Part shown: positions 5,585 to 50,071 of the stretch, piece after piece
Layout of the letters: every line of letters starts with the position of its first letter
Numbering within the stretch: the first letter of the stretch is position 1
DNA from: Chromatiales bacterium
GTDB taxonomy: Bacteria; Pseudomonadota; Gammaproteobacteria; JAJPIJ01
Reading direction: 5' to 3'
Assembly: GCA_052388435.1 (NCBI GenBank)
Contig: JBQTIC010000059.1
Span: forward strand, 14,395 to 78,394
DNA: 64,000 nt
The notes under the pieces: model-generated
Database searches by the model: none
The model's input: only the letters and a program-made list of their open reading frames with translations
What the model was told of the DNA's origin: nothing
Position numbers and translations under genes: made by a program

Positions 5585-6290
5585 GGCGGCGAATCCGGCG
5601 CCGCGATCGGAACTCCTTTACGCGAGCCCCTTCGAGCTGCTCGTCTCCGTCATCCTGTCGGCACAGGCGACCGACGTAAGCGTCAACAAGGCGACGGACA
5701 AGCTATACAGGGTGGCCAACACCCCAATGGCCATGCTCAAGCTTGGCGAGGAGGGACTGAAGCGGCACATCAAGACTATCGGTCTGTACAACACCAAGGC
5801 GAGAAATATCATCCGTACCTGCGAGATCCTGGTGCAGGAGTACGGCGGCATAGTCCCGTGCGGGCGCGCCGCGCTGGAACGCCTGCCAGGGGTCGGGCGC
5901 AAGACCGCCAACGTCATCCTGAACGCGGCGTTTGGCGAGCCGACCATCGCTGTTGACACGCATATCTTTCGCGTCGCCAACCGAACGGGTCTCGCGCGCG
6001 GCAGGAACGTGGTGGAAGTGGAGAAAAGGCTGCTCAGACTGGTGCCGCCGGCGTACAGGCAGAATGCGCATCATTGGCTGATCCTGCATGGACGTTACGT
6101 CTGCACCGCCCGCCGGCCGCGCTGCGCGGAGTGTCTTGTCTTCGATCTCTGCGAATGGCGCGATCGGCACCGATTCGCAGCCGGGCCTGCGCGAGCTGAC
6201 GCACTGCCTGGTAACTTGGATGGCGCCCACTCATCACCTTCTCCCGGACTCTCTACCAAGCTCTCTACCATCAAGGGAGAGGGTGTCTGA
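5544..6290 (+). CDS. nth: Endonuclease III
   Basis: SPFELLVSVILSAQATDVSVNKAT, LPGVGRKTANV, VDTHIFRV, 4Fe-4S motif CTARRPRCAECLVFDLC. Confidence 0.95.
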   Translation: MNSTRRAAIFQRLEAANPAPRSELLYASPFELLVSVILSAQATDVSVNKATDKLYRVANTPMAMLKLGEEGLKRHIKTIGLYNTKARNIIRTCEILVQEYGGIVPCGRAALERLPGVGRKTANVILNAAFGEPTIAVDTHIFRVANRTGLARGRNVVEVEKRLLRLVPPAYRQNAHHWLILHGRYVCTARRPRCAECLVFDLCEWRDRHRFAAGPARADALPGNLDGAHSSPSPGLSTKLSTIKGEGV

Positions 6291-6310
6291 AGCTCGATCC
6301 GGCACGGCGA

Positions 6311-6732
6311 ATGTTCATTGGTGAGCGCGCAACGGCGAGACGCTTCTTCGCCGAGGCCCAAGCAGCTCGGGGGGCTGGCGCTGGGGCCGCTGGAATTCAT
6401 GCTCGCGGGAGTCGTGGCGGAGCACTCGGAGTATCACGCCTTGCTCACCGCCGCGGACTTCCCGCTCGAAGAGGAGTACACACCGGAGCGCGGTATCGCG
6501 AATCCCTTTCTGCATATGGGCATGCATCTTGCGAAGAACAGGTGAGCACGGATCGCCCACGGGGATCGCGGCACTCCACCGGCGACTGCTGCGTCGCCTC
6601 GGCGATACTCATGTCCTGGAACACCGCAGGATGGACTGCCTGGGTGAGGCGCTGTGGCGTGCGCAGCGCGATAACGTGTTTCCCGACGAAGGGGCTTGTC
6701 TTAACTGCCTGCGGAGACTGATGCGCGTATGA
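6311..6732 (+). pseudogene. DUF1841 family protein with three frameshifts
   Basis: Segments in successive frames: MFIGERATARRFFAEA / KQLGG...EHSEYH...YTPERGIANPFLHMGMHLA / EEQVSTDRP / TGIAALH...EHRRMDCLGEALWRAQR; shifts near 6359, 6533, 6558. Confidence 0.75.
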
Positions 6733-8012
6733 CCACAATGGTGGATGTCACGGCCGCACCATCTCCTGGAGACAGACACACGCTGGAGCGCCAGGTAAAG
6801 GTCCTGGCGGAGGCGATTCAGAGCTTCGCCGTGTCCCTCAACCTTCAGGAGACGCTGCGCCACGCCATCGCGAGCTTCGTTGAGTACCTGGACGCCGAGG
6901 CCGCTTCGATCTTTCTCCTTGAGAACAACAACAACGAACTGGTGTGCCAGCAGTGCGCCGGGCCGGTCGACATCACCGGTCTGCGCATGGACGCGAACCA
7001 GGGCATCGTCGGCAAGACGGTGCGCGAGCTGTCTTGCCAGATGGTCCGCGACGTGCAGGGCGAAGAGAGTTTCTACGCCTCCATCGACGCGGGCACCGGC
7101 TTTGCGACGCGCTCGATCCTCTGCGCGCCGCTGGTCGTGCGCGGCCAGTGCATCGGCGCCCTGGAGCTCGTCAACAAGAAGAGCAACGACGGCCGCTTCG
7201 ACGAGGATGACATGCATCTGGTTACCGCGCTCGGCTCGGCAGTGGCGCTGGCCGTACACAATGCGCGCATGGCGGCGGTCCTGGTGGAACAGGAGCGTGT
7301 GCGCAAGGAGCTGGAACTGGTGCGCGAAGTGCAGGTCAACCTGTTGCCGAAGGCCACGCCGGAGGTGGCGCCGGTGGTTGCCGTGAACATTCCGGCGCGC
7401 GAGGTGTCGGGGGATTTCTACGACTACTTCGCCCTTCCGGATGGACGCATTTACTTCAATCTCGGCGATGTTTCCGGCAAGGGCATGAACACGGCGCTTT
7501 GGATGGCCAAGACCACCGGGCTGCTGCGCTGCCTGGCGAAGAGCGCGCCGGATTTGAGCACTCTGTTAGCGCGCGTCAACGATGAGGTCTACGCCACCTC
7601 CTCGCACGGCATGTTCGTCACGCTGGTGACTGGCATGCTCGACCTCAAACGCGATGAGGTGCTCGTCGCCAATGCCGGCCACCTGCCGGCGCTCTACCGC
7701 GGGACGGATGGCGCCTACCGAGAGCTGTTCGCGGAGGGGCCGCCCCTCGGCGTGATGCCGGAGGCGGAATTCCGCTGCACGCGGCTCGCCCTTGCCGGCG
7801 GCAGTCTTTATCTGGTTACCGACGGCGTCACCGAATCGGCGGACGCCGAGAACCACGCGCTGGGCGTTACCGGGCTGCGCCGCCTTATCGACCGCGTCGC
7901 CCACCTTACGCCGCGCGCCCGGCTGGAACAGTTGGTGGCGGCTCTGCGCCTCTCAGGCCAGCGCCAGCGCGACGACATCACCCTGATGCTCCTTGAGAGG
8001 CCTCGGTTATGA
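6729..8012 (+). CDS. GAF + SpoIIE/PP2C phosphatase (RsbU-like)
   Basis: GAF (ASIFLLE...SILCAPL...IGALELVNK); PP2C motifs SGDFYDYF, GDVSGKG, ANAGH, TDGVTE, DDITL. Confidence 0.9.
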   Translation: MTTMVDVTAAPSPGDRHTLERQVKVLAEAIQSFAVSLNLQETLRHAIASFVEYLDAEAASIFLLENNNNELVCQQCAGPVDITGLRMDANQGIVGKTVRELSCQMVRDVQGEESFYASIDAGTGFATRSILCAPLVVRGQCIGALELVNKKSNDGRFDEDDMHLVTALGSAVALAVHNARMAAVLVEQERVRKELELVREVQVNLLPKATPEVAPVVAVNIPAREVSGDFYDYFALPDGRIYFNLGDVSGKGMNTALWMAKTTGLLRCLAKSAPDLSTLLARVNDEVYATSSHGMFVTLVTGMLDLKRDEVLVANAGHLPALYRGTDGAYRELFAEGPPLGVMPEAEFRCTRLALAGGSLYLVTDGVTESADAENHALGVTGLRRLIDRVAHLTPRARLEQLVAALRLSGQRQRDDITLMLLERPRL

Positions 8013-8425
8013 GGAGCAGGCGCCTGCTTAAGCTGCGCTTTCCCTCCGACCCGGCAATCCTGCGCAAGGTGCGCGACCACGTGCGCGCGGCCGCCGAGAA
8101 ATGCGGCTGCGGCGCGCAGGTGGTGGACCAGATTGTCATCGCCGTCAACGAGGCATGCACGAACATCATGCAGCACGCCTACAAGGGCGAGGGCTCAGGT
8201 GCAATTGTTTTGGAAATCTTCAATAATGGCCACGAGTTGGAGTTTCACCTCCGGGACTTCGCGGAGCCGATGGACCTGACTTCGATCGGACCGCGCAAAC
8301 TCCATGAGCTGAAGCCCGGTGGACTGGGGACTCACTTCATCCGACAGATCATGGACGAGTATGCCTACGGACACCTGCACGGAAAGTCCGGCAACTTCCT
8401 GCACATGAAGAAGAGGATAGGCTGA
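8009..8425 (+). CDS. RsbW/SpoIIAB-like Ser kinase (HATPase_c)
   Basis: AVNEACTNIMQHAY N-box, PGGLGTHFIRQIMD G-box; ATGA overlap with upstream phosphatase. Confidence 0.9.
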   Translation: MRSRRLLKLRFPSDPAILRKVRDHVRAAAEKCGCGAQVVDQIVIAVNEACTNIMQHAYKGEGSGAIVLEIFNNGHELEFHLRDFAEPMDLTSIGPRKLHELKPGGLGTHFIRQIMDEYAYGHLHGKSGNFLHMKKRIG

Positions 8426-8510
8426 CACCCGCCCGGTGGGGCAGGCATGGACACAAATTAGGGTGGCAGCGGCGGATGACGGGTGTACATCATCCATGGA
8501 GCGCCGTGAC

Positions 8511-8843
8511 ATGACTTACGCAGTGCGCAATGAGGGCGGCTATGCCATCGTCGAATTGACCGGCGACGTCGACCTGTCCCGCTCGCCGGTCGCCAGATCA
8601 ACCATCCTGTCCTGCCTGGCCGGTGCGCGCCATGTACTGGTGGATCTCTCGGAGGTCACCTATATCGACAGCTCCGGCGTGGCGAGCCTGGTGGAGGGCT
8701 ATCAAACCGCGAAGAAGAACAAACTCCGGTTCGGTCTCATTGGCGTGAGCGAGGCGGCGCTGAACGTGCTGAAGCTGGCGCGCCTGGACAAAGTCTTCCC
8801 GATCCACGCCACACTCAGCGATCGCGTCAAGGCGGATGGCTAG
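8511..8843 (+). CDS. STAS-domain protein (RsbV/SpoIIAA-like anti-anti-sigma type)
   Basis: VDLSEVTYIDSSGVASLV with the conserved phospho-acceptor Ser; LKLARLDKVFPI. Confidence 0.9.
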   Translation: MTYAVRNEGGYAIVELTGDVDLSRSPVARSTILSCLAGARHVLVDLSEVTYIDSSGVASLVEGYQTAKKNKLRFGLIGVSEAALNVLKLARLDKVFPIHATLSDRVKADG

Positions 8844-8912
8844 CCCCGGTGCCATTCATGCCTGGGGAGTAACGCCGTGCTGGCCGATCCCTTAGTCGCC
8901 TGCCCGTGTTGA

Positions 8913-9722
8913 ATGTCGACACGCACTGACGCCTTGATCGCATCCGTAGAACGTCTCGGCCGCGCGACCGTCGCGGTTGTCGAGGAGTTCGGCTACTACT
9001 TTCTGCTGCTGGTGGAGAGCCTTTACTGGCTGCTGTTCGGCTTCCTGCGCCGGCAGCCGGTGCGGGCGTCTGCCATGGCCGCCCAGATGATGGCCATCGG
9101 CATCGCCGCCGTTCCAATCGTGGTGATTCTCGCCTTCACCATCGGCGTCATGCTCGCCATCCAGGGCATACACACGCTGAAGACCTTCGGCGCCGAGGAA
9201 CAGGTCGTGGTCGGGATCGCGCTGTCCGTCACGCGCGAATTCGGTCCGCTCATCACCGCCATCGTCGTGGCCGGGCGCTCCGGTTCGGCGCTGGCCGCGC
9301 GCATCGGCACCATGCAGGTGTCGCAGGAGATCGACGCCCTGCGCGTCATGAGCATCAATCCGGTGCGCTACCTTTCCTCACCGGTGCTCGCGGCGATGCT
9401 GGTGATGGTCCCCTCGCTCACCCTGGTTGCGGACTTCGCCGGTCTGTTCGGCGGTGCCGTGTTCAGCAACATCGAGCTGGGGTTATCTTACAACGCGTAT
9501 GCGGATCGCACACTGACGGCGCTGCAGGTCGACGACGTGATGCAGGGTCTCATCAAGAGCCTGGTGTTCGCTGCCATCATCACCGTCATCGGTGTCAGCA
9601 ACGGCTTCCAGGTAACGGGCGGCGCCGAGGGGGTCGGCAGGGCGACGACACGCTCGGTGGTGCTGGCGATCTCCTATATCGTTGTCGCCGACATGCTGTT
9701 TACGTATTTCCTTAACCGCTGA
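8913..9722 (+). CDS. mlaE: MlaE-family ABC permease
   Basis: REFGPLITAIVVAGRSGSALAARIGTMQVSQEIDALRVM; GVGRATTRSVV. Confidence 0.92.
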   Translation: MSTRTDALIASVERLGRATVAVVEEFGYYFLLLVESLYWLLFGFLRRQPVRASAMAAQMMAIGIAAVPIVVILAFTIGVMLAIQGIHTLKTFGAEEQVVVGIALSVTREFGPLITAIVVAGRSGSALAARIGTMQVSQEIDALRVMSINPVRYLSSPVLAAMLVMVPSLTLVADFAGLFGGAVFSNIELGLSYNAYADRTLTALQVDDVMQGLIKSLVFAAIITVIGVSNGFQVTGGAEGVGRATTRSVVLAISYIVVADMLFTYFLNR

Positions 9723-9725
9723 CGT

Positions 9726-9956
9726 AGGAGTCTGTCGGAGCTGACACGCCATGCGCATTGCTGGCCAGACACGGCTACGGCTGCGACCCGGTGCGCGCAG
9801 CGGCGAGTGCGGAAGCGGGCCCACGCACACCGAGGTCGCCATCGTTCCGGCGCGCCGACTCGGTCCCGCACCTGCCACTGCGCGAAACCGTAGACCGGTC
9901 GGCGCATCGAAAATCGCACACCGTCGCGCACAGCAGCTTGAGTCCGACAGACTCCT
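9726..9956. mobile_element. MITE-like element with perfect 14-bp terminal inverted repeats
   Basis: AGGAGTCTGTCGGA (9726-9739) and TCCGACAGACTCCT (9943-9956); 231 bp, no credible ORF; fills the mlaE-mlaF gap; no obvious target duplication. Confidence 0.65.
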
Positions 9957-9971
9957 GGCCCGGAGGGATGC

Positions 9972-10772
9972 ATGAACGGCGTGAGCGCAGCACCGGTCAT
10001 CGAAGTCAGGGATCTCGTGGCTCATTACGGTACGCGCAAGATCCTGGATGGTGTTCACTTGGATATCCCGCCCGGCGAGATCCGCATCATCATGGGGGGC
10101 AGCGGTTCGGGCAAGAGCACGCTGCTGCGCCACCTCCTCGGCATCAACCGGCCAACGAGCGGTAGCATCCGCCTGCTTGGCATCGACGTCACTGACGCCC
10201 CGGCGGCGGAGCTGTATCAACTGCGCAAGAAGATAGGCGTTGCCTTCCAAGGCGGCGCGCTGTTCAGCTCCATGACCGTCGGTGAAAACATCAAGCTGCC
10301 GCTGCGTGAGCACGCGAAGCTCGATGAGAAGACCATGGAGATCATGGTGCGCCTGAAGCTCGAGGTCGTGAATCTGGCCGGCTTCGAGCACCTGATGCCG
10401 GCGCAGCTCTCCGGCGGGATGGTGAAGCGCGCGGCCGTGGCCCGCGCCATCGTCATGGACCCGAAGGTACTCTTTTTCGACGAGCCTTCCGCCGGTCTGG
10501 ATCCGGTTGTCTCGGCCGAACTCGACGAACTCATCCTCCGGCTGCGCCATGCGATGAACATGACCATCGTGGTGGTGACACACGAACTGGAGAGCGCGCT
10601 GAAAATCGCCGACCGCATCACGGTGCTGGACCAGGGACGCATCCTCATGACCGGGACCGTCGAGGAAGTGCAAAGCAGTGACATCGCGCGGGTGCAGGAT
10701 CTGCTCAATCGCCGACCTCGCGCCGATGAGGTTAATCCCGACGACTACCTGCGCCGGCTGACCGAAGGATGA
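9972..10772 (+). CDS. mlaF: MlaF-family ABC ATPase
   Basis: Walker A GGSGSGKST, signature LSGGMVKR, Walker B FFDEPSAGLDP, VVTHE. Confidence 0.92.
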   Translation: MNGVSAAPVIEVRDLVAHYGTRKILDGVHLDIPPGEIRIIMGGSGSGKSTLLRHLLGINRPTSGSIRLLGIDVTDAPAAELYQLRKKIGVAFQGGALFSSMTVGENIKLPLREHAKLDEKTMEIMVRLKLEVVNLAGFEHLMPAQLSGGMVKRAAVARAIVMDPKVLFFDEPSAGLDPVVSAELDELILRLRHAMNMTIVVVTHELESALKIADRITVLDQGRILMTGTVEEVQSSDIARVQDLLNRRPRADEVNPDDYLRRLTEG

Positions 10773-11828
10773 ATGTGCATGCGACGCGATCACATCAATT
10801 ACTTCATCGTCGGCCTGTTCGTGCTCAGCGTCTCGGTCGCCCTGCTCGCCCTGCTCTACCGCCTCACGGGGACTACGGGACCGACGGACCGCTATTACGC
10901 CTACTACGATAACGTTGGCGGCGTGAAGTACGGCACGGTGACATACTACAAGGGCTACCAGGTCGGTCAGGTGGAGCGCATCACGCCCGAGCAGCGCGAT
11001 CACGCGACACGCTACCGCGTCGAGTTCAGTGTCACCCGCGGCTGGCAGATCCCACGCGGCAGTGCGGCCGCCATCGTCATCCCCGCCCTGCTCGCACCGG
11101 TCGTGATAGACATCCGCGAGGGGCCGGGACCGGAGCGGCTGCCGCCCGGTTCGGAACTCGAAGGGGCGGAGCAGGCGAATCTCTTCGCCGCCCTCAACGG
11201 CGTCGCGGCTGACTTCCACGAGCTGTCGAGAGAAGGCATCCAGCCCATGCTGCGCAATCTCAACGAGCGGATCACCGCGCTCAGCAAGGAGTACGAGTCG
11301 CTCTCGCGGGACGAGGTGCGGCCACTCCTGGAGCGGCTGCAGCAGCGTCTTGACGACCCGGAGCTTTTCGCCGATCTCAAACAGGTAATCGACAAGCTGG
11401 ACGCCGGCGCAGACGCACTGCTCTCAGTGCTGAGAGAAGAAAATCAGCAGCACCTCGCCTCCATCTTGTCCAATGCCGACCGTGGATCGGCGCAACTGAA
11501 CGAAGTGCTCGTACGTATCGAGGGTACGCGCGTGCTCATGCATCACCTGCTCGAACAGATGGACCAGCTGGTCGCTGAAAATCGCAGTGGTGTGACACAG
11601 ACCGTCGGGGACGCCGCGACCGCAATGCAGGAGCTGCGGGACAGCATCCGCACGGTGGCAGACAACGTGGATAGCATCCTGCATTATCTGGAGAGCGGCA
11701 CCCGCAACATAAATGAGTTCAGCCGCGAGGTGCGCGAGAATCCCGGGATACTCTTGCGTGGCAAACCGCCGCAGGATCCGCTGCCCCCCGGTGGCAACAA
11801 CAGCAGCAGCGTGGAGGAAGAGCCTTGA
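10773..11828 (+). CDS. mlaD: MlaD/MCE-domain protein with long helical extension
   Basis: N-terminal TM (VGLFVL), MCE motif VTYYKGYQVGQVERI, heptad-rich helical tail, end ENPGILLRG. Confidence 0.85.
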   Translation: MCMRRDHINYFIVGLFVLSVSVALLALLYRLTGTTGPTDRYYAYYDNVGGVKYGTVTYYKGYQVGQVERITPEQRDHATRYRVEFSVTRGWQIPRGSAAAIVIPALLAPVVIDIREGPGPERLPPGSELEGAEQANLFAALNGVAADFHELSREGIQPMLRNLNERITALSKEYESLSRDEVRPLLERLQQRLDDPELFADLKQVIDKLDAGADALLSVLREENQQHLASILSNADRGSAQLNEVLVRIEGTRVLMHHLLEQMDQLVAENRSGVTQTVGDAATAMQELRDSIRTVADNVDSILHYLESGTRNINEFSREVRENPGILLRGKPPQDPLPPGGNNSSSVEEEP

Positions 11829-12442
11829 GACATTGGAAGATCATCGCTTGTGTGCTGATCGGGCTCACCACTGGCTGCGGGCGCAATGTGGCGGTGCCGA
11901 CCGACGTCTACTATCGTCTTGGCGCACCTCGCGTGGCACAATCGCTCGCGCGGCCGCTGACGGAGGGGGTGTTGTTCGTGGGCACTTTTCGCAGCGACGG
12001 TCTGAGCGGCGAGCGGCCGCTGGTATACAGCGATGCCCCGGACGATCTCACACTGAGGCAATATCATTACCATCATTGGGAGGACCCGCCGCCGCGGCTG
12101 CTGCGTCGACAACTGGTGCACTACCTGCGCGCCGCAAAGGCTGCCGGAACCGTCATGTCGGGTAAGGAGGCCAAATCCGATCAGGTGGTGCGCGGGCGGC
12201 TGTGGCGTTTCGAGCACGTGTTGCGCAAGAATGACACCTTTGTGCGAGTAGCGCTGGAGCTGCGACTGGAGGATCGGGAAGGCCGCGCGCTGCTGTTGAA
12301 GGATTACGAGGTGGAGAAGGTCGCCGCGCGCAGGGACGTGGCAAGCGTGGTCGCGGCAATGGACGAGGCGGTCAACGAGCTGTACGGCCAGTTCCTGGCC
12401 GATGCCGCGCGTGCCACCTCCGCTTTGAGCGCGGCGCCGTGA
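11825..12442 (+). CDS. ABC-type transport auxiliary lipoprotein (PqiC-like)
   Basis: Lipobox LTTGC; YYRL, QYHYHHWEDPPPRLL, RFEH; follows the MCE gene with TTGA overlap. Confidence 0.8.
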   Translation: MRHWKIIACVLIGLTTGCGRNVAVPTDVYYRLGAPRVAQSLARPLTEGVLFVGTFRSDGLSGERPLVYSDAPDDLTLRQYHYHHWEDPPPRLLRRQLVHYLRAAKAAGTVMSGKEAKSDQVVRGRLWRFEHVLRKNDTFVRVALELRLEDREGRALLLKDYEVEKVAARRDVASVVAAMDEAVNELYGQFLADAARATSALSAAP

Positions 12443-14691
12443 ACGCGATCCTGGTAAGGCTCCGCCGGCATTGGATCCGTATCGCCTTGGGTCTCGCGGT
12501 GCTGGTAGCCTTCCTCCTGCACGTCCGCGAGGAGGAGGGCGGTCTGTTCCGCGTGGGCCTCATCGACCAGCTGGAGAATTTGGCCTACGACACCCGGCTC
12601 GCATTCAGCATGCCGCGCACCCTCGATCCGCGCATCGTCATCGTGGACATTGACGAAAAGAGCCTTGCGGCCGAGGGCCGCTGGCCGTGGCCGCGGCACC
12701 GGCTTGCGAAGCTGCTCGAGCAGCTGTTCGGCACTTACAGGGTGGCGCTGGTCGGGTTCGACATCGTCTTTGCCGAACCCGATGAAAGCTCGGGGCTCAA
12801 GGTACTGGAGCGTCTCGCGGCCGGTGAGCTAAAGGCCGTGCCGCGGTTTGACGAGGCGCTGGAGCAGCTCCGCCCCCAGCTCGACAATGATGCCATCTTC
12901 GCGGGCGCTTTAGGCGAATATCCGGTTGTGCTCGGATACTTCTTCAATGAGCAGGCGAAGGCGCGCACCGGCGCGCTGCCGGCGCCGACCTTCATCAAGG
13001 GCAGCTTCCCCGGCAAGCGCATCGCCTTCCGCGACGCCGCCGGCTACGGCGCTAACCTCGCCCTCTTCAACGAGGCGGCCTTGGGTGCGGGTCATTTCAA
13101 TCCGTGGCTGGACGTAGACGGCGTGGTGCGCCGGGTGCCGATGGTGTTTTCCTTCGAGGGGGCTCAGTACGAGGCCCTGTCGCTGGCTGTCGCCCGCCAC
13201 TACCTGCAGGTCAAGGATGTGCGGGCCGAATTCGAGCCCGTACCCTCGCTGGCGGCGAAGAGCTACTCGGGGTTGGAGTGGCTGCGCATTGGAAAAGCGC
13301 GCATCCCGGTTGATGAGCACGTCCAGGCACTGGTGCCGTACCGGGGCCATCAGGGCAGCTTCCCGTACGTGTCCGCGACTGACGTCATCAATGGCAAGGC
13401 GGACCCGAAGCTGCTGAAGGAGGGAGCGATCGCGCTGGTGGGCACGACCTCCGCCGGCCTGCTCGACCTGCGGGCCACGCCGGTGCAAAGGGCCTACCCC
13501 GGAGTGGAGATCCACGCCAACCTGATCGCCGGGATCCTGGACGGGCGGATCATGCAGCAGCCCGCCTATACGCGCGGCGCGGAGTTCGTGCTCCTCGCTA
13601 TCTTTGGTCTCGTCTTTGCGCTGACACTGCCGATGTTGAGCCCGCTCGCAGCGACTCTGGCAGCTCTGGGCATGCTCGGTGGTTACATCGGGGTCAACCT
13701 CGCATTCTGGCACTTCGGCACACTGGTCCTGCCGATTGCCTCCGGCGTCCTGATGATGCTGGTGATGTTCCTGTTGAACATGTCCTACGGCTACTTCATC
13801 GAAACCCGCGGCAAGCGCCAGCTCACCGGACTGTTCGGACAATATGTGCCGCCCGAGCTGGTCGACGAGATGGCCAAGGACCCCGAACAGTACTCGCTCG
13901 AGGCGGAATCCCGGGAGATGACCGTGCTCTTCTCCGACGTGCGTGGCTTCACCTCCATCTCCGAGGGGCTGGAGCCCAAGGAGGTCGCCGAGCTCATGAA
14001 TCAGATGCTCACACCAATGACGACCGTGATTCACGACCATCGCGGCACGATCGACAAATACATGGGCGACGCGATCATGGCCTTCTGGGGGGCACCGGTG
14101 CCGGACCTCGAGCACGCGCGTCACGCCATCACCGCGGCCATGGAGATGATGGCGAAGCTGGAGGAGATGAACGCGCAGTTCAAAGAGCGCGGCTGGCCCG
14201 AAATCAGGGTTGGCATCGGGATCAACACCGGCGTGATGAACGTGGGCAACATGGGATCGGAATTCCGCATGGCCTACACGGTGCTTGGCGACAGCGTCAA
14301 CCTGGGATCGCGCCTGGAAGGTTTGACCAAGGGCTATGGCGTGCACATCATCGTCAGCGAGGCTAGCAAGGATGCAGTCCCGGATTACGCGTATCGGGAG
14401 CTCGACGTTGTGCGGGTCAAGGGCAAGGACAAGCCGGTCGGGATCTACGAACCGATTGCGCCGGCCACCGCTGTCGACAAGCGGCTGCAGGACGAGCTGA
14501 AACTGTACCGCCAGGCGCTCAGGTACTATCGCACCCAGCAGTGGGACATGGCCGAGTTGCAGTTCCTCAACCTCGCGAAGGCCGCGAACTCCGGCTACCT
14601 GTATAAGATGTACGCCGAGCGCGTAGCGTATTTCCGGCGCAATCCGCCCGGCAAGGACTGGGACGGCGTGTTCACCTTCACCACCAAGTAA
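12439..14691 (+). CDS. CHASE2-domain class III adenylate cyclase
   Basis: CHASE2 (IVIVDIDEKSL..GRWPWPR, DVDGVVRRVP, YPGVEIHAN), 3 TM, cyclase FSDVRGFT, DKYMGD, GINTG, YTVLGDSVNLGSRLEG (K/T residues indicating ATP specificity). Confidence 0.93.
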   Translation: MNAILVRLRRHWIRIALGLAVLVAFLLHVREEEGGLFRVGLIDQLENLAYDTRLAFSMPRTLDPRIVIVDIDEKSLAAEGRWPWPRHRLAKLLEQLFGTYRVALVGFDIVFAEPDESSGLKVLERLAAGELKAVPRFDEALEQLRPQLDNDAIFAGALGEYPVVLGYFFNEQAKARTGALPAPTFIKGSFPGKRIAFRDAAGYGANLALFNEAALGAGHFNPWLDVDGVVRRVPMVFSFEGAQYEALSLAVARHYLQVKDVRAEFEPVPSLAAKSYSGLEWLRIGKARIPVDEHVQALVPYRGHQGSFPYVSATDVINGKADPKLLKEGAIALVGTTSAGLLDLRATPVQRAYPGVEIHANLIAGILDGRIMQQPAYTRGAEFVLLAIFGLVFALTLPMLSPLAATLAALGMLGGYIGVNLAFWHFGTLVLPIASGVLMMLVMFLLNMSYGYFIETRGKRQLTGLFGQYVPPELVDEMAKDPEQYSLEAESREMTVLFSDVRGFTSISEGLEPKEVAELMNQMLTPMTTVIHDHRGTIDKYMGDAIMAFWGAPVPDLEHARHAITAAMEMMAKLEEMNAQFKERGWPEIRVGIGINTGVMNVGNMGSEFRMAYTVLGDSVNLGSRLEGLTKGYGVHIIVSEASKDAVPDYAYRELDVVRVKGKDKPVGIYEPIAPATAVDKRLQDELKLYRQALRYYRTQQWDMAELQFLNLAKAANSGYLYKMYAERVAYFRRNPPGKDWDGVFTFTTK

Positions 14692-14759
14692 GCACGCGGG
14701 TTGAACGGCCGTTGGATTGACAGAACTGATCTGCGGTGCCGCATGACTGGATTCGGGGC

Positions 14760-15200
14760 TTAGCTCCGGTCGCCCATGATGTAGTGCTGGAGCTGGTCGA
14801 TGATAAATCTCTGCTCGGAGATGATGTCCTTGACCAGATCGCCGATCGAGACGATGCCAACCAGCGTGCCGTCTTCAATGACGGGGAGGTGGCGCAGGCG
14901 GTTCTCGGTCATCAGTGCCATGCATCCCTCGTTGGTCTGGTCGGGGCGCACGTACATGACCGGGGAGGTCATGATTTCGCGCACGAATGTCTCCTTCGAC
15001 GCTCGCCCCATGAGCACGACCTTCCGGGCGTAATCGCGTTCACTGATGATACCGACGACCTCCTCGCCCTCCGTCACCACGAGCGCGCCGATGCCTTTGT
15101 CGGCCATCAGCCTGAGGGCGTCGAAGACCGACGCCGTGGGCGCGATGGTCTGCACGGTCTGATCCGGTTTGCCCTTAAGGATCTGAGCCACGGTTTTCAT
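14760..15200 (-). CDS. CBS-pair protein
   Basis: IGALVV...GIISERDYARK, RHLPV...GIVSIGDLVK. Confidence 0.9.
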   Translation of the reverse strand: MKTVAQILKGKPDQTVQTIAPTASVFDALRLMADKGIGALVVTEGEEVVGIISERDYARKVVLMGRASKETFVREIMTSPVMYVRPDQTNEGCMALMTENRLRHLPVIEDGTLVGIVSIGDLVKDIISEQRFIIDQLQHYIMGDRS

Positions 15201-15306
15201 GAGCGATTCTGCGTGGTAAAGCCTGGGGCGAAAGCGATCTGTCCGAATACTCAGGCGCGCTGCCGCCGCCCAAGGAAAGGAAATCCGGGGAGTCCGGTGC
15301 GGGGGA

Positions 15307-16041
15307 TTAGCGGCCGAGCAGGGTGAATTCCATCTTGATGCTGGCCAGCTCTACGATGTCGCCGTTTTTTAGCTCGTAGGCCTGCGGGCCTATCGCCGTG
15401 CCGTTGACCACGGGATAATGGGTTCCCCCTCCGTCGCTCTCGATATGGGTGAGGAAATAGCCCTGCGGGCGCCGGGAGATGACCGCGACCTGCACCCCGG
15501 GCTTGCCGAGCGTGATGAGCGCCTTGGTCAGTTCGAGTTCCTTCCCGGCAATCGGGCCGTTCAGAACGCGCAGCTTGCCGAGCGGCATGCCCGATACGGT
15601 CGCGGCAGCGGGTGCCGCGCTCGTGGCCATGGCCGGGGCTTGCTGAGGCGCCACGCCGGCATTGGCTGCCGCCTGCACGCTGGCGGCCGCCGCGCTGGCG
15701 GAGCCAGGACGGATGATCATTGTCTTCTCGAATTCCTCGTCGTGGGCCGTGGCGTGCTCGTTGACGTATTTCAACTCGTGCTTGCCGATACCGATAAGGT
15801 CGCCGTCGCGCAGGGCGTGCTTCTTGATGAGTTTGCCGTTGACGTAGGTGCCGTTGGTGCTGCCCAGGTCCTCCAGGAACGAGTCATCGAGGATGGTAAT
15901 GATGAGCGCGTGCTTGCCGCTCACGGCCAGGTTGTCGATCTGGACATCGTTATCCGGTTTGCGCCCAATCGTCGTGCGTTCCTTGGTGAGTGTGCATTCA
16001 CGCTGCACTGCACCATTCAAGCTAAGGATCAGTTTCGCCAT
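15307..16041 (-). CDS. FHA-domain protein (N-terminal FHA plus degenerate C-terminal FHA-like domain)
   Basis: TTIGRKPDND..VSGKHA..DLGSTNGTYVNG; Ala-rich linker; second domain ITLGKPG...LKNGDIVELA. Confidence 0.9.
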   Translation of the reverse strand: MAKLILSLNGAVQRECTLTKERTTIGRKPDNDVQIDNLAVSGKHALIITILDDSFLEDLGSTNGTYVNGKLIKKHALRDGDLIGIGKHELKYVNEHATAHDEEFEKTMIIRPGSASAAAASVQAAANAGVAPQQAPAMATSAAPAAATVSGMPLGKLRVLNGPIAGKELELTKALITLGKPGVQVAVISRRPQGYFLTHIESDGGGTHYPVVNGTAIGPQAYELKNGDIVELASIKMEFTLLGR

Positions 16042-16886
16042 AGGAACCTATCCCGTCTGTCGACCTTCTTCAACCAGCCCATTAGATTGTGCCAAGCTGA
16101 GCGCGCCGGGAAGCCACTCAAGACCCGTGCCAGAATCACAGAAATATTATCCTTACCCCCCTTGGCGTTAGCGACGCGGACCATCTCACGCCCTGCCTCT
16201 AAAAGATTAGCACTATATTTACTGAGGGTTAAGCGAATTTCTTCATCAGACATCATATCATTTAAGCCATCCGTACACAGCAGATAGATGTCCCCCGGCA
16301 GCACCCTCTCCTCAGTAATATCCACATCCACTGCATCTTCAATCCCCAAGGCCCGCGTGACAAGGTTTTTGGGGGTATTCGCGATTGCCTCCTCCTTGCT
16401 GAGGAAACCGCGGTCGACGAGTTCCTGCACCAGCGAGTGATCATTGGTCACCTGCTCGAAACTGCCACGGCGGAAGCGGTACAGGCGTGAGTCGCCGACG
16501 TGCGCTACGCAGATACGGTCATCGTAGAACAGGGTGCAGAGTACCGTCGTCCCCATGCCATGGCATTGAGGCTCGCTATTGGCCGTCTCGAAAATATGCA
16601 GGTTCGCCTTCTGGATGGCCTGTCTGAGCATCAACGCCCCCATGGTTCGGCCGCTGGCTTTGTCGATCTGGTGCGGTTCCCGTGCGGCGAGGCCGTGTCG
16701 GACCAGATCCATGACCACGCTGACGGCGATAGCGCTGGCGATCTCTCCCGCCTTATATCCGCCCATCCCGTCGGCGATCATGGCGAAACCCAGTCTCGGG
16801 TCGCTAGCGGTGCTGTCCTCATTGCGCGGGCGCTTTTGCCCAGGATCGGACAGGTTGACGACCTCCAGCGTTCCGGTGAGGTCCAT
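16029..16886 (-). CDS. Stp1/PppA-type PP2C Ser/Thr phosphatase
   Basis: NEDS, IADGMGG, GMGTT, AHVGDSRLY, DHSLVQE, LLCTDGL, GGKDNISV; TAATG coupling to the kinase stop. Confidence 0.92.
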   Translation of the reverse strand: MDLTGTLEVVNLSDPGQKRPRNEDSTASDPRLGFAMIADGMGGYKAGEIASAIAVSVVMDLVRHGLAAREPHQIDKASGRTMGALMLRQAIQKANLHIFETANSEPQCHGMGTTVLCTLFYDDRICVAHVGDSRLYRFRRGSFEQVTNDHSLVQELVDRGFLSKEEAIANTPKNLVTRALGIEDAVDVDITEERVLPGDIYLLCTDGLNDMMSDEEIRLTLSKYSANLLEAGREMVRVANAKGGKDNISVILARVLSGFPARSAWHNLMGWLKKVDRRDRFLWRN

Positions 16887-19432
16887 TACACTTGTTTTTT
16901 CTGGGCGCATGCCTGCAAGTCGCGGGCTAACTCGCCGCCGGTCTGATAGCGCCTGCCGATGTCCTTTTCGAGTGCCTTGTTGATGATCCCCTGCAGGCAA
17001 CGCTTGCCCTGGGCCAGCTCCGGTCGCGCCTCCAGGATGTCCTGGTGTGGTTCGTTCGCGATCTTGAACATCAGCGTGGCCATGGAATCACCGCGGAAGG
17101 GCAGACGACCGCTCAACAACTGGTACAGCGTGACGCCGAGTGAAAAGAGGTCGGAGCGGCCGTCGATCTTCTTGCCGGCCAGTTGCTCGGGCGACATGTA
17201 GGAAGGCGTGCCGAGAACCATGCCGGTTTTGGTCTTGCTCGAGTCGGTGATGCGCGCGATGCCGAAATCGGTGAGCTTGATGGCCTTGGCCTGCGGGTCG
17301 AACATGACGTTGGCGGGCTTGATGTCGCGGTGCACCACATTCTGCTGGTGCGCGTAATCCAGCGCCAGCGCGGCCTTATAGATGATGCCCATCACCAGCG
17401 GCACCGGCAGGAGGGCGTCCTCCTTGGTGTAGCGTGTGAGGTCGTGGCCGGTGAGGAATTCCATGGCGATGTAGGCGAGATCGTGCTCCTCGCCCGCGTC
17501 GTAGATGGTGACGATGTTGGGATGCTGGAGCCGGCCAGCGGTCTCGGCCTCCCGGAAGAACCGCTGCTTGACCTCATCGAGCTCGTCGGCCTCAAACTCC
17601 TGAGACAGCGCGAGGGTCTTGATCGCGACCACACGATTGATCTTCGGATCCCTTCCTAGGTACACGACACCCATCGCACCCTTGCCCAGCTCCTTTTCGA
17701 CCTGGTAGCGGCCCAGCATGGGCTTCTGCACCGAGCCATCGTTGAGCAGCAGCGTTCCGCCGGGGTGCGAACCCGCGCCGCCGAGCAGGACCGTGTCCTC
17801 CATCTGCTTGGCGCGCACCATGCGCGTCGCGAGATCGCGGAATTTCGGGTTGTGACCGCCAATGTACTGATACACATTGTTGGCCTTGTTGAACTGGCGC
17901 TTGCGCTCGTAGTCGAGGGCCAGGTTGTAGAGCGGATCCATGATCGAATCATCGAGCGGGCACTTGCGGAACTTCTCGAAAGCCATGTCGAGCTGGCCCT
18001 GCTGCTGGAAGGCCAGCCCGAGCATGCGGTTGCTCTCAGCCGATTCCACGTCGGCCTTCATCTTGCCACGCTCGGTGACCAGGAAGCGCTTCGTGGTGAG
18101 CAGCAGGTGGCCACAGAGCAATAGCACCGCGGCGAGCATCGTCTGCATCCAGTTGCCCGATTTCATCGAAAAGAAGCTCAACAGCAGCAGCGTGACCAGC
18201 AAACCGGCAGTGGCCGTCGCCGCCGGTCCGGCTTTGAGCTTCGGCAGCAGCCAGGCGAGATAAGCGCCCACCAGCAGGTACAGCAGCAGCTCCACCCACG
18301 GCGCCCAAGCCGGTATGACGAAGAAGTTCTCGTTCAGGATGCTGGAGACCGTGTGGGCGAGTATGAGCACGGGCGCCATCTGGCCGACCGGCGTGTGGAA
18401 AGTGTCGCCGATGCCGAAGGCAGTACCGCCAATGAGCACGGTTTTCCCGGCGTACTTCTGCGCCGGGATCTTTCCCGACAGAACATCGTAGAAGGAATCG
18501 ACCTGAAAGGCCGGTTCATTGCCGGCCTTGTTCTTGTAGAAGAAGGTGTGCATGCGCGAGATGGGATCCGTGCGGATGGACAGCTTGCCCAGCCTGACGG
18601 AATCGCCCTTCACCAGCTCGATGTCGCCTATGCCCAAGTTGAGGGAACGAGCAGCGATGGCCAGTGCGAGCGACGGGTAGTACCTGCTGTAGTAGTTAAT
18701 GGCCAGAAGATCGGTGCGGATGCCGCCGTCTGGATCCTGCCACTGGCTTAAGTGACCGACAAGCGCAGCCGTGCTGCCGAGAGCGGGGATCGGGGCGAAG
18801 AGCTGCCTGGCGGGGAAGGGCTCCACCTCGCCCAGAGGCCCGACGCTGATCTTGCTGTCGCCCAGCGCGCTCCTCTCGACGTACTCGGGCGTGGGCTTGT
18901 CGGGATTGCCAAGCGGGGCACCCAGCTCGAAGAGGCTGGACAAGACGACGTTGCCGGCGCTGCCAATGGCCTTCTCGAGCTTCCCGTCGTTATCGAGTTC
19001 ACCCTGCGCACTTCTCAGCTTGCTGCCAAGCTCGGCCAGCGCCGCATCGTCGCTTTGGGCCAGGCCGTTGGTCTCATAGAAGCCCAGAATGTCGTTGATG
19101 TATTGCAGTCCGGGATCGACCTGCGGCTCGGTGAAAAAGATTGTGTTGGCTATGACCTTGGCGCCGGCCTGCGCCAGCCTGTCGATTATCTCCGCGTGGA
19201 CCTTTCGCGGCCACGGCCAGCGGCCAATGTTGCTGATGCTGCTGTCGTCGATGGCGATGACGGCAATCTGGGCGCCAGGGTCCCGAGTCGAGGCGCGCAC
19301 ACCGAAGTCGTAAGCGGCGCGCTCCAGCGATTCCACCCACGCCGGCCGATCGCCCTTCAGGAACAGAAGCAGAAACAGCAGCGTGAGGACCACGCCGGCG
19401 AACCAATCGGTTTTCCAGAACGTTTTGCTCAT
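16886..19432 (-). CDS. CHASE2-domain Hanks-type Ser/Thr kinase with TPR-like linker
   Basis: CHASE2 (IAIDDSSI..GRWPWPR, DPDGGIR), TM helices, GKGAMGVVY, VAIK, HRDIKPAN, DFG, GTPSYMSPE. Confidence 0.93.
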   Translation of the reverse strand: MSKTFWKTDWFAGVVLTLLFLLLFLKGDRPAWVESLERAAYDFGVRASTRDPGAQIAVIAIDDSSISNIGRWPWPRKVHAEIIDRLAQAGAKVIANTIFFTEPQVDPGLQYINDILGFYETNGLAQSDDAALAELGSKLRSAQGELDNDGKLEKAIGSAGNVVLSSLFELGAPLGNPDKPTPEYVERSALGDSKISVGPLGEVEPFPARQLFAPIPALGSTAALVGHLSQWQDPDGGIRTDLLAINYYSRYYPSLALAIAARSLNLGIGDIELVKGDSVRLGKLSIRTDPISRMHTFFYKNKAGNEPAFQVDSFYDVLSGKIPAQKYAGKTVLIGGTAFGIGDTFHTPVGQMAPVLILAHTVSSILNENFFVIPAWAPWVELLLYLLVGAYLAWLLPKLKAGPAATATAGLLVTLLLLSFFSMKSGNWMQTMLAAVLLLCGHLLLTTKRFLVTERGKMKADVESAESNRMLGLAFQQQGQLDMAFEKFRKCPLDDSIMDPLYNLALDYERKRQFNKANNVYQYIGGHNPKFRDLATRMVRAKQMEDTVLLGGAGSHPGGTLLLNDGSVQKPMLGRYQVEKELGKGAMGVVYLGRDPKINRVVAIKTLALSQEFEADELDEVKQRFFREAETAGRLQHPNIVTIYDAGEEHDLAYIAMEFLTGHDLTRYTKEDALLPVPLVMGIIYKAALALDYAHQQNVVHRDIKPANVMFDPQAKAIKLTDFGIARITDSSKTKTGMVLGTPSYMSPEQLAGKKIDGRSDLFSLGVTLYQLLSGRLPFRGDSMATLMFKIANEPHQDILEARPELAQGKRCLQGIINKALEKDIGRRYQTGGELARDLQACAQKKQV

Positions 19433-19593
19433 GGAGGAACGCTGGGAGGAAGCTTTCTTGGGCTCTTGCAGTCCCGCTGATAGTACCACTTATGCTAACA
19501 GTAAGAATAGCTTACGCCGACAGGACGCGAATGCAGCCGCGAGTGAGCCCGTGGATGCCCGGCCCTCAGGCCGGTGGCCCGCAGCACCTGCGA

Positions 19594-47305: not shown

Positions 47306-48067
47306 TCAGTAAACCTTGAGGACGCCATCCTCCTCCTCGATGTACTCAAGGTCCTTGGTCGGCGGGTTGCCGTCATAGATCCTGTACTCGCGGTTCTGGC
47401 GATAGGCCTCGCGGGTGAAACTGTAGGCGTCCAGTGCCGCCTCGTCGCGGATACGCGTGGCCTCGAGCAGATTGGCGCGCTTATTGATACCGTTCACGAT
47501 GCCGAGCGGCAAGGTGACTGTGGTGCTTACATAGAACAGCGGGTTGAGCACCGTGCTCGTTGCCAGATCCGGCGCATCGCGTACCGAATTGGGCCCGAAT
47601 ATCGGCAGCACGAGGTATGCGCCTTCGCCGGCACCCCACTTGCCAAACGTCTGGCCGAGATCCTCGTCGTTTTTCGGGAGGCCCGCGCCGCTGGCGACGT
47701 CGAACAGCCCGCCGAAGCCCACGGTGCTGTTGAGCAGGAAGCGGCCGGTGTCGTTGGCGGCCTGCTGGAACTTGCCCTGCAGCACATCGTTGGCGATGAC
47801 GTTGATGTAGGAGACGTTATCGAAGAAGTTGGTGACGCCCATGCGCACGCCTTTGGGCGTGACCTTGCTGTAAGCCGTTGCCACCGGCTTGATGACCGCC
47901 TTATCTAGGCTGTCATTGATGTTGTAGATGACGCGGTTGACTCCCTGCAACGGGTCGTCGTCCTCGGCCGCGTTGCCCACGCAACCGGAGAGCAACATCA
48001 AGATGATTAGCCCCGCGAAGGCCTCTATGCGGCCCACGTTATTGTACATTTTCATATTCAGCCCCAA
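47306..48067 (-). CDS. mlaA: VacJ/MlaA lipoprotein
   Basis: Lipobox LSGC, DDPLQGVNR, RFLLNSTVGFGGLFDVA, EDLGQTFGKWG, YLVLPIFGPNSVRD. Confidence 0.93.
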   Translation of the reverse strand: MGLNMKMYNNVGRIEAFAGLIILMLLSGCVGNAAEDDDPLQGVNRVIYNINDSLDKAVIKPVATAYSKVTPKGVRMGVTNFFDNVSYINVIANDVLQGKFQQAANDTGRFLLNSTVGFGGLFDVASGAGLPKNDEDLGQTFGKWGAGEGAYLVLPIFGPNSVRDAPDLATSTVLNPLFYVSTTVTLPLGIVNGINKRANLLEATRIRDEAALDAYSFTREAYRQNREYRIYDGNPPTKDLEYIEEEDGVLKVY

Positions 48068-48120
48068 TTCCAGCGCCCCTATATATAGTGCGCTGTCCCC
48101 ACTTGCAACGCAATGTCTAG

Positions 48121-48747
48121 CTAATTGCCCGTGCTTCTGGGCGCAGACTCGTACCGCACGATCCTATCATTCAGCTTTGCGATCAGCGCAGCATAGCCTT
48201 CATTCTTTATTATCGACGTATAGTCAGCGCGCTTTAATGACAGATCACTGATGCCGTCGGCGATGACATTCAAAATGCGCCAGCGGTTATCCTTGCTCTG
48301 GCGCAGGACATAATCCAGTTTGACCGCCGAGCCGTCCGGCTTGAGTAGCTCCGTCTTCACTATCACGTTGTTTCCGCTCTGGTTTTCTTCCAAAACGTGG
48401 TGGAAGGACTCGCCGCTGAAGTTGTCAAACCGGGAGGCGTACGTGGCGATGCTTAATCGTGAAAAGGTCTCCACGAACGTGTTCTGCTCCTCGGGGCTCA
48501 GCTCCGACCAGTGGCGTCCGACGACGACCCGGGCGATGCCCGGAAAGTCAAAGCTCTGGCTGATCACGGGATCCAGCGTCTGGTAGCGTCCCGTGTAGCC
48601 GAGTTCTGCGGATCGCTTCATGACATCGAGCAACGCCTCGTGCAGCTTGTCGACTGTCTTGCCCGCATCCGTCTGGCCGGCGGCGCCGGCAGTAAGCGAC
48701 GACCCGCTCAGAGCGAGTACGATCAGCACCGCGCGCAGATAGAGCAT
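48121..48747 (-). CDS. hpnM: MlaC/Ttg2D-family periplasmic lipid carrier; HpnM-like by context
   Basis: FDFPGIARVVVGRHW, YASRFDNFSGE, LDYVL, WRILNVIADGISDL. Confidence 0.8.
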   Translation of the reverse strand: MLYLRAVLIVLALSGSSLTAGAAGQTDAGKTVDKLHEALLDVMKRSAELGYTGRYQTLDPVISQSFDFPGIARVVVGRHWSELSPEEQNTFVETFSRLSIATYASRFDNFSGESFHHVLEENQSGNNVIVKTELLKPDGSAVKLDYVLRQSKDNRWRILNVIADGISDLSLKRADYTSIIKNEGYAALIAKLNDRIVRYESAPRSTGN

Positions 48748-48882
48748 GCTTATGCCTCCTCAGGCAGATATACGGCTACTGTGACGGAACCGGAGGCGGG
48801 AAAGTTCACGGCGGCTGTGAAAAAGCAGCCGCCACCAACACACACTCGAGAGCTGTCTGCTGCATAGACAAGATCTTGCGGC

Positions 48883-50004: not shown

Positions 50005-50071
50005 CCCGTCTTAAGCGTAGGGGGGGCTCCGGTGAGAGCGGAGCGACAATCAGGCGCTGCGATGATCGTCT

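Follow-up and report, generated by a model that had tools for sequence, protein, structure and literature searches.

A conserved linkage of an RsbV-type STAS protein, a predicted kinase and a GAF-PP2C phosphatase with Mla/MCE lipid transporter genes: a candidate phosphorylation switch with probable cyclic AMP input

Among the described systems closest to the locus reported here is the Escherichia coli lipid transporter MlaFEDB (PDB 6XGY, 6XBD; Kolich et al. 2020, PMC7367683). A helical face of its STAS protein, MlaB, binds the helical subdomain of the ATPase MlaF, with T52 in a central position; the substitution T52E weakens binding, and the C-terminal helix of the neighbouring MlaF (Y261, L265, L266) docks at the MlaF/MlaB interface (PMC7367683). 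Phosphoregulation of MlaB was raised in the same paper, which left open whether and how it takes place. The present analysis concerns eight genes at positions 6729-14691 of a stretch of 64,000 nucleotides from a Chromatiales bacterium (assembly GCA_052388435.1, contig JBQTIC010000059.1, positions 14,395 to 78,394 of the forward strand; this whole stretch is called the window), in which Mla-type transporter genes stand behind genes for a phosphatase, a kinase and a STAS protein of the kind found in partner-switching systems. We know of no described Mla system that has its own kinase and phosphatase.

Mla-Pqi chimeric transporters have been described as Mpc of Brucella abortus, which consists of MpcEFD and a lipoprotein and in which an N-terminal STAS domain of MpcE, "homologous to MlaB", is fused to the permease (PMC12436622), and as PA3211-PA3214 of Pseudomonas aeruginosa (PMC13631591). 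Partner switching is represented by RsbU/RsbV/RsbW-sigmaB of Bacillus subtilis and by SpoIIE/SpoIIAA/SpoIIAB-sigmaF, which are built from the same three families as the module in the window (PPM phosphatase, GHKL kinase, and a STAS protein with a Ser after an Asp) and are likewise encoded by translationally coupled genes. Outputs other than a sigma factor, with the STAS protein as effector, are found in HptB-HsbR-HsbA of P. aeruginosa (FlgM, HsbD), SypE-SypA of Vibrio fischeri, BtrU/V/W of Bordetella and HmpU/V/W of Nostoc; in these systems the phosphorylation state of the STAS protein decides its partner, bifunctional kinase-phosphatase fusions occur, and outputs lie at the envelope or surface. 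The HenR module of Anabaena adds regulation of a glycosyltransferase to the partner switches with a non-sigma output (PMC13555669). None of the non-sigma switches was tied to an ATP-binding cassette (ABC) or MCE transporter, or to a GAF sensor of the cyclic-nucleotide type, in the literature searched, and the RbaV/W/Y system of Rhodobacter capsulatus has no Mla context.

Non-sigma partner switching and STAS subunits of Mla transporters are therefore already known as such, and phosphoregulation of MlaB had been proposed before; in this respect the suggestion of an undescribed system, made in a preliminary description of this DNA, holds in part. A kinase/phosphatase module on a Mla/MCE transporter was not found in the literature searched: full texts on MlaB phosphorylation, on partner switching together with MCE or Mla, on STAS-MlaE and on GAF-PP2C-cAMP did not describe the module, most subscription journals being outside the coverage of the search. 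The genes of the locus are the following.

6729..8012, plus strand: GAF plus SpoIIE/PP2C serine phosphatase of the SpoIIE family (Pfam SpoIIE 7e-40, GAF 7e-15)
8009..8425, plus strand: RsbW-like GHKL serine kinase, 138 residues (Pfam HATPase_c_2 1.6e-25)
8511..8843, plus strand, within the open reading frame (ORF) 8436-8843: single-domain STAS protein, 110 residues (Pfam STAS 1.5e-16)
8913..9722, plus strand: MlaE-family ABC permease (Pfam MlaE 7.7e-71; TIGR00056 226 bits, cutoff 212)
9972..10772, plus strand: MlaF-like ABC ATPase (matches to MlaF in the PDB, LSGGM signature)
10773..11828, plus strand: single-MCE (MlaD) protein, 351 residues (Pfam MlaD at residues 38-116)
11825..12442, plus strand: PqiC-like outer-membrane lipoprotein (Pfam ABC_trans_aux, PF03886, 7e-09)
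12439..14691, plus strand: class III adenylate cyclase with CHASE2 and Guanylate_cyc domains (Pfam CHASE2 2e-58, Guanylate_cyc 2e-23)

All eight same-strand genes named in the preliminary description were recovered as ORFs with matches to the domains assigned to them, and the 4-bp start/stop overlaps given there are present (ATGA at 8009, TTGA at 11825, GTGA at 12439); the mlaF and MCE genes abut as TGAATG (10770-10775). The STAS gene almost certainly starts at the ATG at 8511, which is preceded by GGAG 8 nt upstream, corrects the ORF start at 8436 and agrees with the length of 110 residues found among its homologues.

On balance, and with modest confidence, we favour reading this locus as a trans-envelope Mla-Pqi chimeric MCE transporter the cytoplasmic STAS protein of which is under a dedicated phosphorylation switch. 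Because the module is linked to the transporter genes across genomes and in two transporter architectures, no sigma factor gene adjoins it, and a STAS-MlaE fusion exists, the STAS protein is taken for a transporter-associated, MlaB-like subunit controlled by the kinase and phosphatase. Gene content, motifs, conserved linkage, and the pocket residues of the GAF domain and specificity residues of the cyclase are observed, and are described below. From them we infer the protein-protein contacts, the phosphorylation of the STAS protein and the sign of regulation as follows. Unphosphorylated STAS protein would bind MlaF as MlaB does in E. coli, aided by the Y-L-x-R-L tail of the neighbouring MlaF, and the transporter would be stabilised or activated. 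The RsbW-like kinase would phosphorylate Ser54, which occupies the position of Thr52 of MlaB at the centre of the MlaF interface; the STAS protein would then be released and transport would fall. The GAF-PP2C protein would take the phosphate off the STAS protein when its GAF domain binds a cyclic nucleotide, which in the clade of the window would be cyclic AMP (cAMP) made by the CHASE2 cyclase at the operon end in response to an extracytoplasmic signal. No sigma factor would be involved, and the partner that switches would be the STAS protein, not the kinase. Phosphorylation-dependent switching of an MlaB-like subunit, with cAMP as the gate, is plausible; the complete four-step circuit, from the signal at the CHASE2 cyclase through cAMP and GAF-PP2C to the phosphorylation state of an RsbV-type STAS protein serving as MlaB-like subunit of an MCE transporter, is put forward tentatively, as a possibility that we would not yet back over its alternatives taken together.

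The linkage was surveyed in two directions. In the forward survey, with one genome per GTDB species, at least 587 loci were found and 80 were kept; these came from Gamma-, Beta- and Alphaproteobacteria, with STAS identities from 84% down to 47%, and about 20 kb were covered per locus in the other genomes and 64 kb in the genome of the window. The kinase gene lies immediately upstream of the STAS gene in all 77 of 77 loci and the PP2C gene is present in 66 of 72, while mlaE and/or mlaF follow the STAS gene directly in 70 of 79 informative loci. About 52 loci have the order STAS-MlaE-MlaF-long MCE-PqiC seen in the window (type 1). In 12-13 others the STAS gene is followed by a canonical set, either MlaF-MlaE-MlaD(short)-MlaA-MlaC or MlaE-MlaD-MlaA-MlaC with mlaF close by on the opposite strand; four loci from Lysobacterales have STAS-MlaE, and a single locus (L056, 10001-11227) has the module followed by an MlaF gene (69% identical) without MlaE, MCE or lipoprotein genes, a minimal pairing of STAS and MlaF. 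Since a search downstream of mlaC revealed no second STAS gene in the eight canonical-type loci tested, the STAS protein of the module is the only candidate for MlaB in these otherwise complete Mla operons (F, E, D, MlaA, MlaC). In the reverse survey, a STAS gene was found upstream of each of the 26 metagenomic MlaE orthologues (at least 57% identity) for which upstream sequence was available; among four more distant MlaE matches (38-48% identity), three had no STAS gene upstream and one (L120) had. Recurrence in other genomes had been named in the preliminary description as a check on its proposal, and the linkage is conserved in both directions of the survey. It is real and widespread, and is well supported as a functional linkage.

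A STAS domain joined to the permease itself was found in locus L121 (5461-9104; Azoarcus sp. KH32C, plasmid pAZKH), where a 378-residue STAS_2-MlaE permease is followed by MlaF, a 320-residue MlaD-family protein and an ABC_trans_aux lipoprotein. The cassette has neither a kinase nor a phosphatase gene, and the fused STAS domain has D-T-A-G at the position of the phosphorylation site. The free STAS gene of the window stands exactly where this fused domain stands in the Azoarcus protein, and in MpcE as well: immediately N-terminal to MlaE.

The names given to proteins of the module by NCBIfam and the sequence databases (anti-sigma factor, anti-sigma antagonist) would suit an ordinary anti-sigma system, in which the kinase holds a sigma factor encoded elsewhere and the neighbourhood of the Mla genes is mechanistically meaningless; the limited extent of the DNA examined, 64 kb here and about 20 kb in each other genome, also leaves that account some room. 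We regard it as very improbable. In line with the preliminary description, no gene of the sigma-70 family was found in the 64-kb window by searches with phmmer using RpoE, SigB, SigF and FliA and with two hidden Markov models built from them, which very divergent extracytoplasmic function sigma factors could escape. Searches of 83 loci turned up only four ORFs of the sigma-70 family, and none adjoins the module, whereas the linkage with mlaE/mlaF extends across three proteobacterial classes and both directions of the survey, beyond chance. In 29 of the 83 loci a single reading frame covers both kinase and phosphatase, which also argues against a role with a sigma factor. HsbR and SypE are proteins that resemble these fusions and act on STAS proteins with non-sigma outputs. 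In the B. subtilis systems the module goes with a sigma factor; here no sigma factor gene was found nearby, genes of an ABC lipid transporter are the conserved neighbours, the sensor is a GAF domain of the cyclic-nucleotide type, and a third of the loci carry the kinase-phosphatase fusion.

The STAS protein keeps the phospho-acceptor motif DSSG assigned to it earlier: D53-S54-S55-G56 is present and is invariant in 18 orthologues, in which helices 1-3 are mostly invariant as well. Like MlaB, it is a single-domain protein of about 100 residues encoded in the transporter operon, and its S54 aligns with T52 of E. coli MlaB in phmmer and MAFFT alignments, so that a Ser/Thr stands at the equivalent position. 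More than 3200 homologues were found, the top 120 clusters being 67-85% identical and nearly all 110 residues long; they are named "anti-sigma B factor antagonist" or "STAS domain-containing protein" in the databases. In each of the 32 complete loci the STAS protein is conserved better than its kinase and its phosphatase, and with median identities of 55, 43, 46 and 57% for STAS, kinase, phosphatase and MlaE, respectively, the STAS protein tracks MlaE; a conservation above that of kinase and phosphatase is expected of a hub protein with several partners.

In PDB searches MlaF matches the proteins from Acinetobacter baumannii, P. aeruginosa and E. coli (6e-58 to 2e-52); it has the LSGGM signature, and its C-terminal extension, with the Tyr/Leu helix of the E. 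coli protein, ends in D-Y259-L-R-R-L263-T. In the MAFFT alignment D258-Y259...L263 of the window falls on D260-Y261...L265 of E. coli MlaF. Among the linked MlaF proteins (about 65), LSGGM is kept together with a near-invariant tail, LLNR-x8-D-x-(D/E)-(Y/H)-L-x-R-L, in both architectures and in three proteobacterial classes, and the Y-L-x-R-L tail is absent from the MlaF of the fused-STAS Azoarcus system. The MCE protein carries its MCE domain at residues 38-116, followed by a long C-terminal extension, and matches TIGR00996 over residues 15-306 (E 4e-22, below the curated cutoff); with 351 residues it belongs to the length class of MpcD (331 residues) and the Azoarcus homologue (320 residues). 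The lipoprotein has an N terminus of lipobox type (MRHWKIIACVLIGLTTG-C, ending in L-T-T-G-C), and of the type-1 loci that extend far enough downstream, the large majority have a PqiC-like gene behind the MCE gene.

The cassette of MlaE, MlaF, long MCE protein and PqiC-like lipoprotein is of the Mla-Pqi chimeric type, like Mpc and PA3211-PA3214, with which it shares four genes: a MlaE-type and a MlaF-type gene, a single-MCE protein of about 320-350 residues with a long C-terminal extension, which is helical in the described type and putatively so here, and a PqiC-like lipoprotein. It differs from the Mpc type in that the STAS protein is separate, of an apparently unrelated RsbV type with DSSG, and preceded by the kinase and GAF-PP2C genes, and in the MlaF tail, which the fused-type MlaF of Azoarcus lacks. 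From MlaFEDB it differs in the long MCE protein and in the PqiC-like lipoprotein that replaces the MlaC/MlaA shuttle; moreover, the STAS gene comes first and codes for an RsbV-like protein with its own kinase and phosphatase, whereas MlaB is encoded last in its operon.

The kinase is the predicted enzyme for phosphorylation of Ser54. Its sole match in the PDB is RsbW of B. subtilis (6m36, 3.7e-10), and 77 orthologues share with it the N-box (E..N), D83 and the GGLG box. The GAF-PP2C protein is predicted to be both the sensor and the phosphatase for the phosphorylated STAS protein: the SpoIIE match covers the full profile, the motifs GDVSGKG, TDG and DDIT are visible, and the PP2C domain of P. 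aeruginosa RssB is matched in the PDB at 2.5e-14. The fusions of the two enzymes include a 557-residue GAF-SpoIIE-HATPase_c_2 protein in locus L081. A swap of the sensor domain within the same module was seen in L010, L013, L020, L022 and L023, where HDOD replaces GAF in the phosphatase; the protein of L013 is an HDOD-PP2C-kinase fusion.

The GAF domain of the phosphatase looks like a cyclic-nucleotide receptor with its predicted pocket retained. Its top matches in the PDB are GAF domains that bind cyclic nucleotides, namely phosphodiesterase PDE2A GAF-B (1MC0, 3e-17) and Anabaena CyaB2 (1YKD, 1e-14), followed by PDE5 and PDE10 (to 8e-12), and GAF domains of other kinds score 1e-4 or weaker, except 4mcw, a GAF domain the ligand of which is not known. 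In the 1mc0 alignment seven of nine contact positions of PDE2A GAF-B are kept (S424, I458, Y481, D485, T488, T492 and E512), and the pair F438/D439, which selects guanine in PDE2A, is replaced by C/A. The contact residues are numbered after Martinez et al. (2002); the identities agree with the alignment at all nine positions. Of 61 orthologues, 50-59 retain the residue at each of the pocket positions D, T, T and E, and in the motif NK..F..D the N, F and D are invariant and the K is found in 56 of 61. The cyclic-nucleotide GAF domains compared here serve phosphodiesterases or cyclases; the output here is a PP2C phosphatase.

The cyclase has the metal-binding Asp residues (FSDVRGF, GDAIMA) and is predicted to be of adenylate type by its Lys/Thr specificity pair: the K of IDKYMGD and the T of YTVLG match Spirulina CyaC (1wc1), unlike the E/G of Cya2 (2w01). 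Class III cyclase genes neighbour the module in three arrangements: after the lipoprotein gene, directly after the STAS gene, and directly upstream of the PP2C gene. Because of the pocket of the GAF domain, the K/T pair and these three arrangements, cAMP is more likely an input to the phosphatase than an output of the operon, as far as sequence can tell, and the cyclic nucleotide sensed by GAF-PP2C probably comes from the CHASE2 cyclase. The earlier suggestion of a cAMP output in the same operon thus probably had the direction wrong, the cyclase more likely feeding the switch; that a cyclase belongs to the operon holds for the window and some lineages.

Several observations weigh against a cAMP-gated, MlaB-like subunit as set out above. 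The input of cAMP is made less secure by the cyclase adjoining the module in only about 16 of 83 loci, and by HDOD standing in for GAF in some of the phosphatases. The kinase has an atypical G1 box, with a family-specific D-F-A in place of D-x-G, and in this genome an inverted-repeat spacer between mlaE and mlaF may uncouple the expression of mlaF to the cyclase gene from the module. The STAS protein itself, judged by its sequence and its predicted structure, is of RsbV type and not an MlaB orthologue. It scores 69 bits with TIGR00377 (anti-sigma-antagonist type, cutoff 53) and only 25 bits, against a cutoff of 90, with the NCBIfam MlaB family NF033618, and a PDB search gives TM1442 at 8e-11 and MlaB chains at E 0.14-0.96. 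An AlphaFold2 model (predicted local distance difference test score 87.8) has template modelling (TM) scores of 0.82-0.85 to RsbV, SpoIIAA, RsfB and TM1442 in Foldseek, in which E. coli MlaB ranks only 41st and 49th (TM 0.62-0.72). Profile comparison of the STAS family of the window with the fused STAS domain of Azoarcus L121 gave no detectable similarity beyond the D-S/T-x-G core, and the analogy with MlaB therefore rests on gene context. The STAS subfamily is also attached to another class of transporter, resembling MFS/TLC proteins, so its partners are not limited to MlaF. The earlier proposal of a switched MlaB-like subunit is accordingly kept for the place of the protein, which has conserved linkage, two architectures, the lack of another STAS gene in the canonical-type loci tested and STAS-MlaE fusions in its favour, and given up for its descent: the STAS protein may act like MlaB as an RsbV-type protein recruited to the same place.

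A STAS protein far closer to RsbV and SpoIIAA than to MlaB would also be expected if the classical logic had acquired a new target: the kinase would act as an "anti-transporter" that holds MlaF or MlaE inactive by binding it, and the unphosphorylated STAS protein would sequester the kinase without ever touching the transporter. In canonical partner switching it is the kinase that holds the output factor, and components and gene order here are canonical. Such a mechanism is nevertheless improbable. The solved MlaFB and MlaFEDB structures, and permeases with a fused STAS domain, show that contact with Mla transporters is made by a STAS domain, and the helix by which MlaF clamps MlaB has its counterpart in the conserved MlaF tail. 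Of the cytoplasmic components the kinase is conserved least, and in many loci it is joined to the phosphatase; in the canonical-type loci tested, no other STAS protein that could serve as MlaB was found.

Nine loci in or near the clade of the window keep the kinase-STAS pair without Mla genes, with an intact STAS protein that is no more diverged, and these too count against an exclusive link between the STAS protein and MlaF. In six of them (L006, L007, L009, L018, L024, L030) a CHASE2 cyclase gene follows the STAS gene directly, in the manner of a PP2C-kinase-STAS-cyclase locus, and L024 and L030 lack PP2C as well and keep only kinase, STAS and cyclase; in L013, L025 and L034 neither Mla genes nor a full cyclase gene follow. 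They raise the question whether the true output of kinase and STAS protein is the CHASE2 cyclase or some other non-Mla protein, the Mla genes being neighbours through co-expression under the same envelope signal. HsbA, which activates the diguanylate cyclase HsbD in P. aeruginosa, provides a model for such an output. The STAS protein is as conserved in Mla-less as in Mla-linked loci, the cyclase is always downstream in the clade of the window, and the fusions of the same STAS subfamily to MFS/TLC-like transporters point the same way. We nonetheless consider this explanation rather unlikely, since about 80% of the loci have no cyclase nearby, as against 89% with mlaE/mlaF, and since the reverse survey found a STAS gene with 26 of 26 MlaE orthologues. 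The module is, furthermore, placed on two Mla architectures, replacing MlaB in the canonical one, and, going by the GAF pocket, the cyclase would act ahead of the phosphatase. The loci without Mla genes have the look of deletion derivatives: L025 is taken for one because a cyclase remnant, the 91 C-terminal residues, lies right after its STAS gene. This was the only remnant; Mla remnants were sought in the Mla-less loci and none were found, and no relocated orphan MlaEFD cassette was found among the close metagenomic MlaE orthologues. Either the transporter is encoded elsewhere in those genomes or the STAS protein has another target there. It may have further partners, the cyclase among them, in which case MlaF would not be its sole target.

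We know of essentially nothing on the post-translational regulation of inter-membrane lipid traffic in bacteria. If the complete four-step circuit set out above is real, it would be the first control of a Mla/MCE transporter by Ser phosphorylation and the first direct control of inter-membrane lipid transport by a second messenger, and would answer how the activity of MlaB is regulated. It would make a transporter one of the few known outputs of partner switching that are not sigma factors, possibly link cAMP signalling with envelope homeostasis, and correct a systematic error of annotation in thousands of proteins labelled "anti-sigma B factor antagonist". The family of loci offers natural systems in which a Mla-type STAS subunit is paired with its own kinase and phosphatase and a probable cAMP input, so that phosphoregulation of the MlaB kind becomes testable with few purified proteins.

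Among the homologues of the STAS protein, P0135, P0190 and P0210 are membrane proteins of about 830-844 residues with MFS/TLC (ATP/ADP-transporter-like) matches and a C-terminal STAS domain 45-57% identical to that of the window, and P0194 is a HATPase_c_2-STAS fusion. An origin of the free STAS protein by splitting of the fused form was rejected, there being no significant profile similarity to the Azoarcus domain. P0186, which had appeared to be a STAS-MlaE fusion (STAS 59% identical), was discarded as a frameshift artefact in which the STAS C terminus is replaced by out-of-frame sequence, and P0148, a STAS domain continued by a PqiC-like C-terminal part, looks as if it had arisen by deletion of mlaE, mlaF and the MCE gene or from a chimeric contig. 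A tblastn search of the PLSDB plasmids with the STAS protein gave no match.

Two further features lie within or next to the operon.

9723..9971, no strand: spacer between mlaE and mlaF with an inverted-repeat insert (blastn self-hit, fold -119.6 kcal/mol)
6291..6729, plus strand: frameshifted remnant of a DUF1841 gene (tblastn with the DUF1841 protein of L081)

The spacer of 249 bp holds an insert of about 231 bp with perfect 14-bp inverted repeats (9726-9739 and 9943-9956), and because of it the eight genes are not uniformly tightly coupled. The insert occurs in one copy in the window, folds into a long hairpin and is not present in relatives, in which the spacer measures 0-93 nt in 49 of 51 cases. 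It may be an element resembling miniature inverted-repeat transposable elements that could influence the expression of mlaF and the downstream genes. An Rfam scan of positions 6000-15500, insert included, gave no match, and a consensus scan for promoters and terminators, with counts near the expectation from shuffled sequence, carries no information on transcript structure.

Between nth and the GAF-PP2C gene, the DUF1841 protein of L081 matches 6372-6533 and 6556-6723 in two frames, and the stop of the remnant still overlaps the PP2C start codon as ATGA at 6729. With at least one frameshift, the DUF1841 gene of the window is either a pseudogene or the product of an assembly error. Sixteen related loci carry the gene intact, with start/stop coupling to PP2C; it is a possible additional upstream member of the operon in the clade of the window only. 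In L083, an otherwise syntenic contig of 5.3 Mb, mlaE (10482-11138) and the CHASE2 cyclase gene (13573-15720) are each split into two called genes, likely through frameshift errors of long reads, which bears on how the frameshifts in the DUF1841 gene of the window are judged.

On the minus strand at 14760-19489, genes for CBS, FHA, PP2C phosphatase and CHASE2-Ser/Thr kinase proteins converge on the CHASE2 cyclase gene, which places two CHASE2 sensors, a cyclase and a Ser/Thr kinase, side by side at this locus. The trio of FHA, PP2C and CHASE2 kinase genes is kept beside the cyclase or the module in the clade of the window, even at loci without Mla genes. Apart from the transporter studied here, the window carries genes of the MlaA and MlaC families at 47306-51211 on the minus strand, next to a family-2 glycosyltransferase gene and a radical-SAM/DUF3463 gene, a context that we take to resemble a hopanoid cluster.

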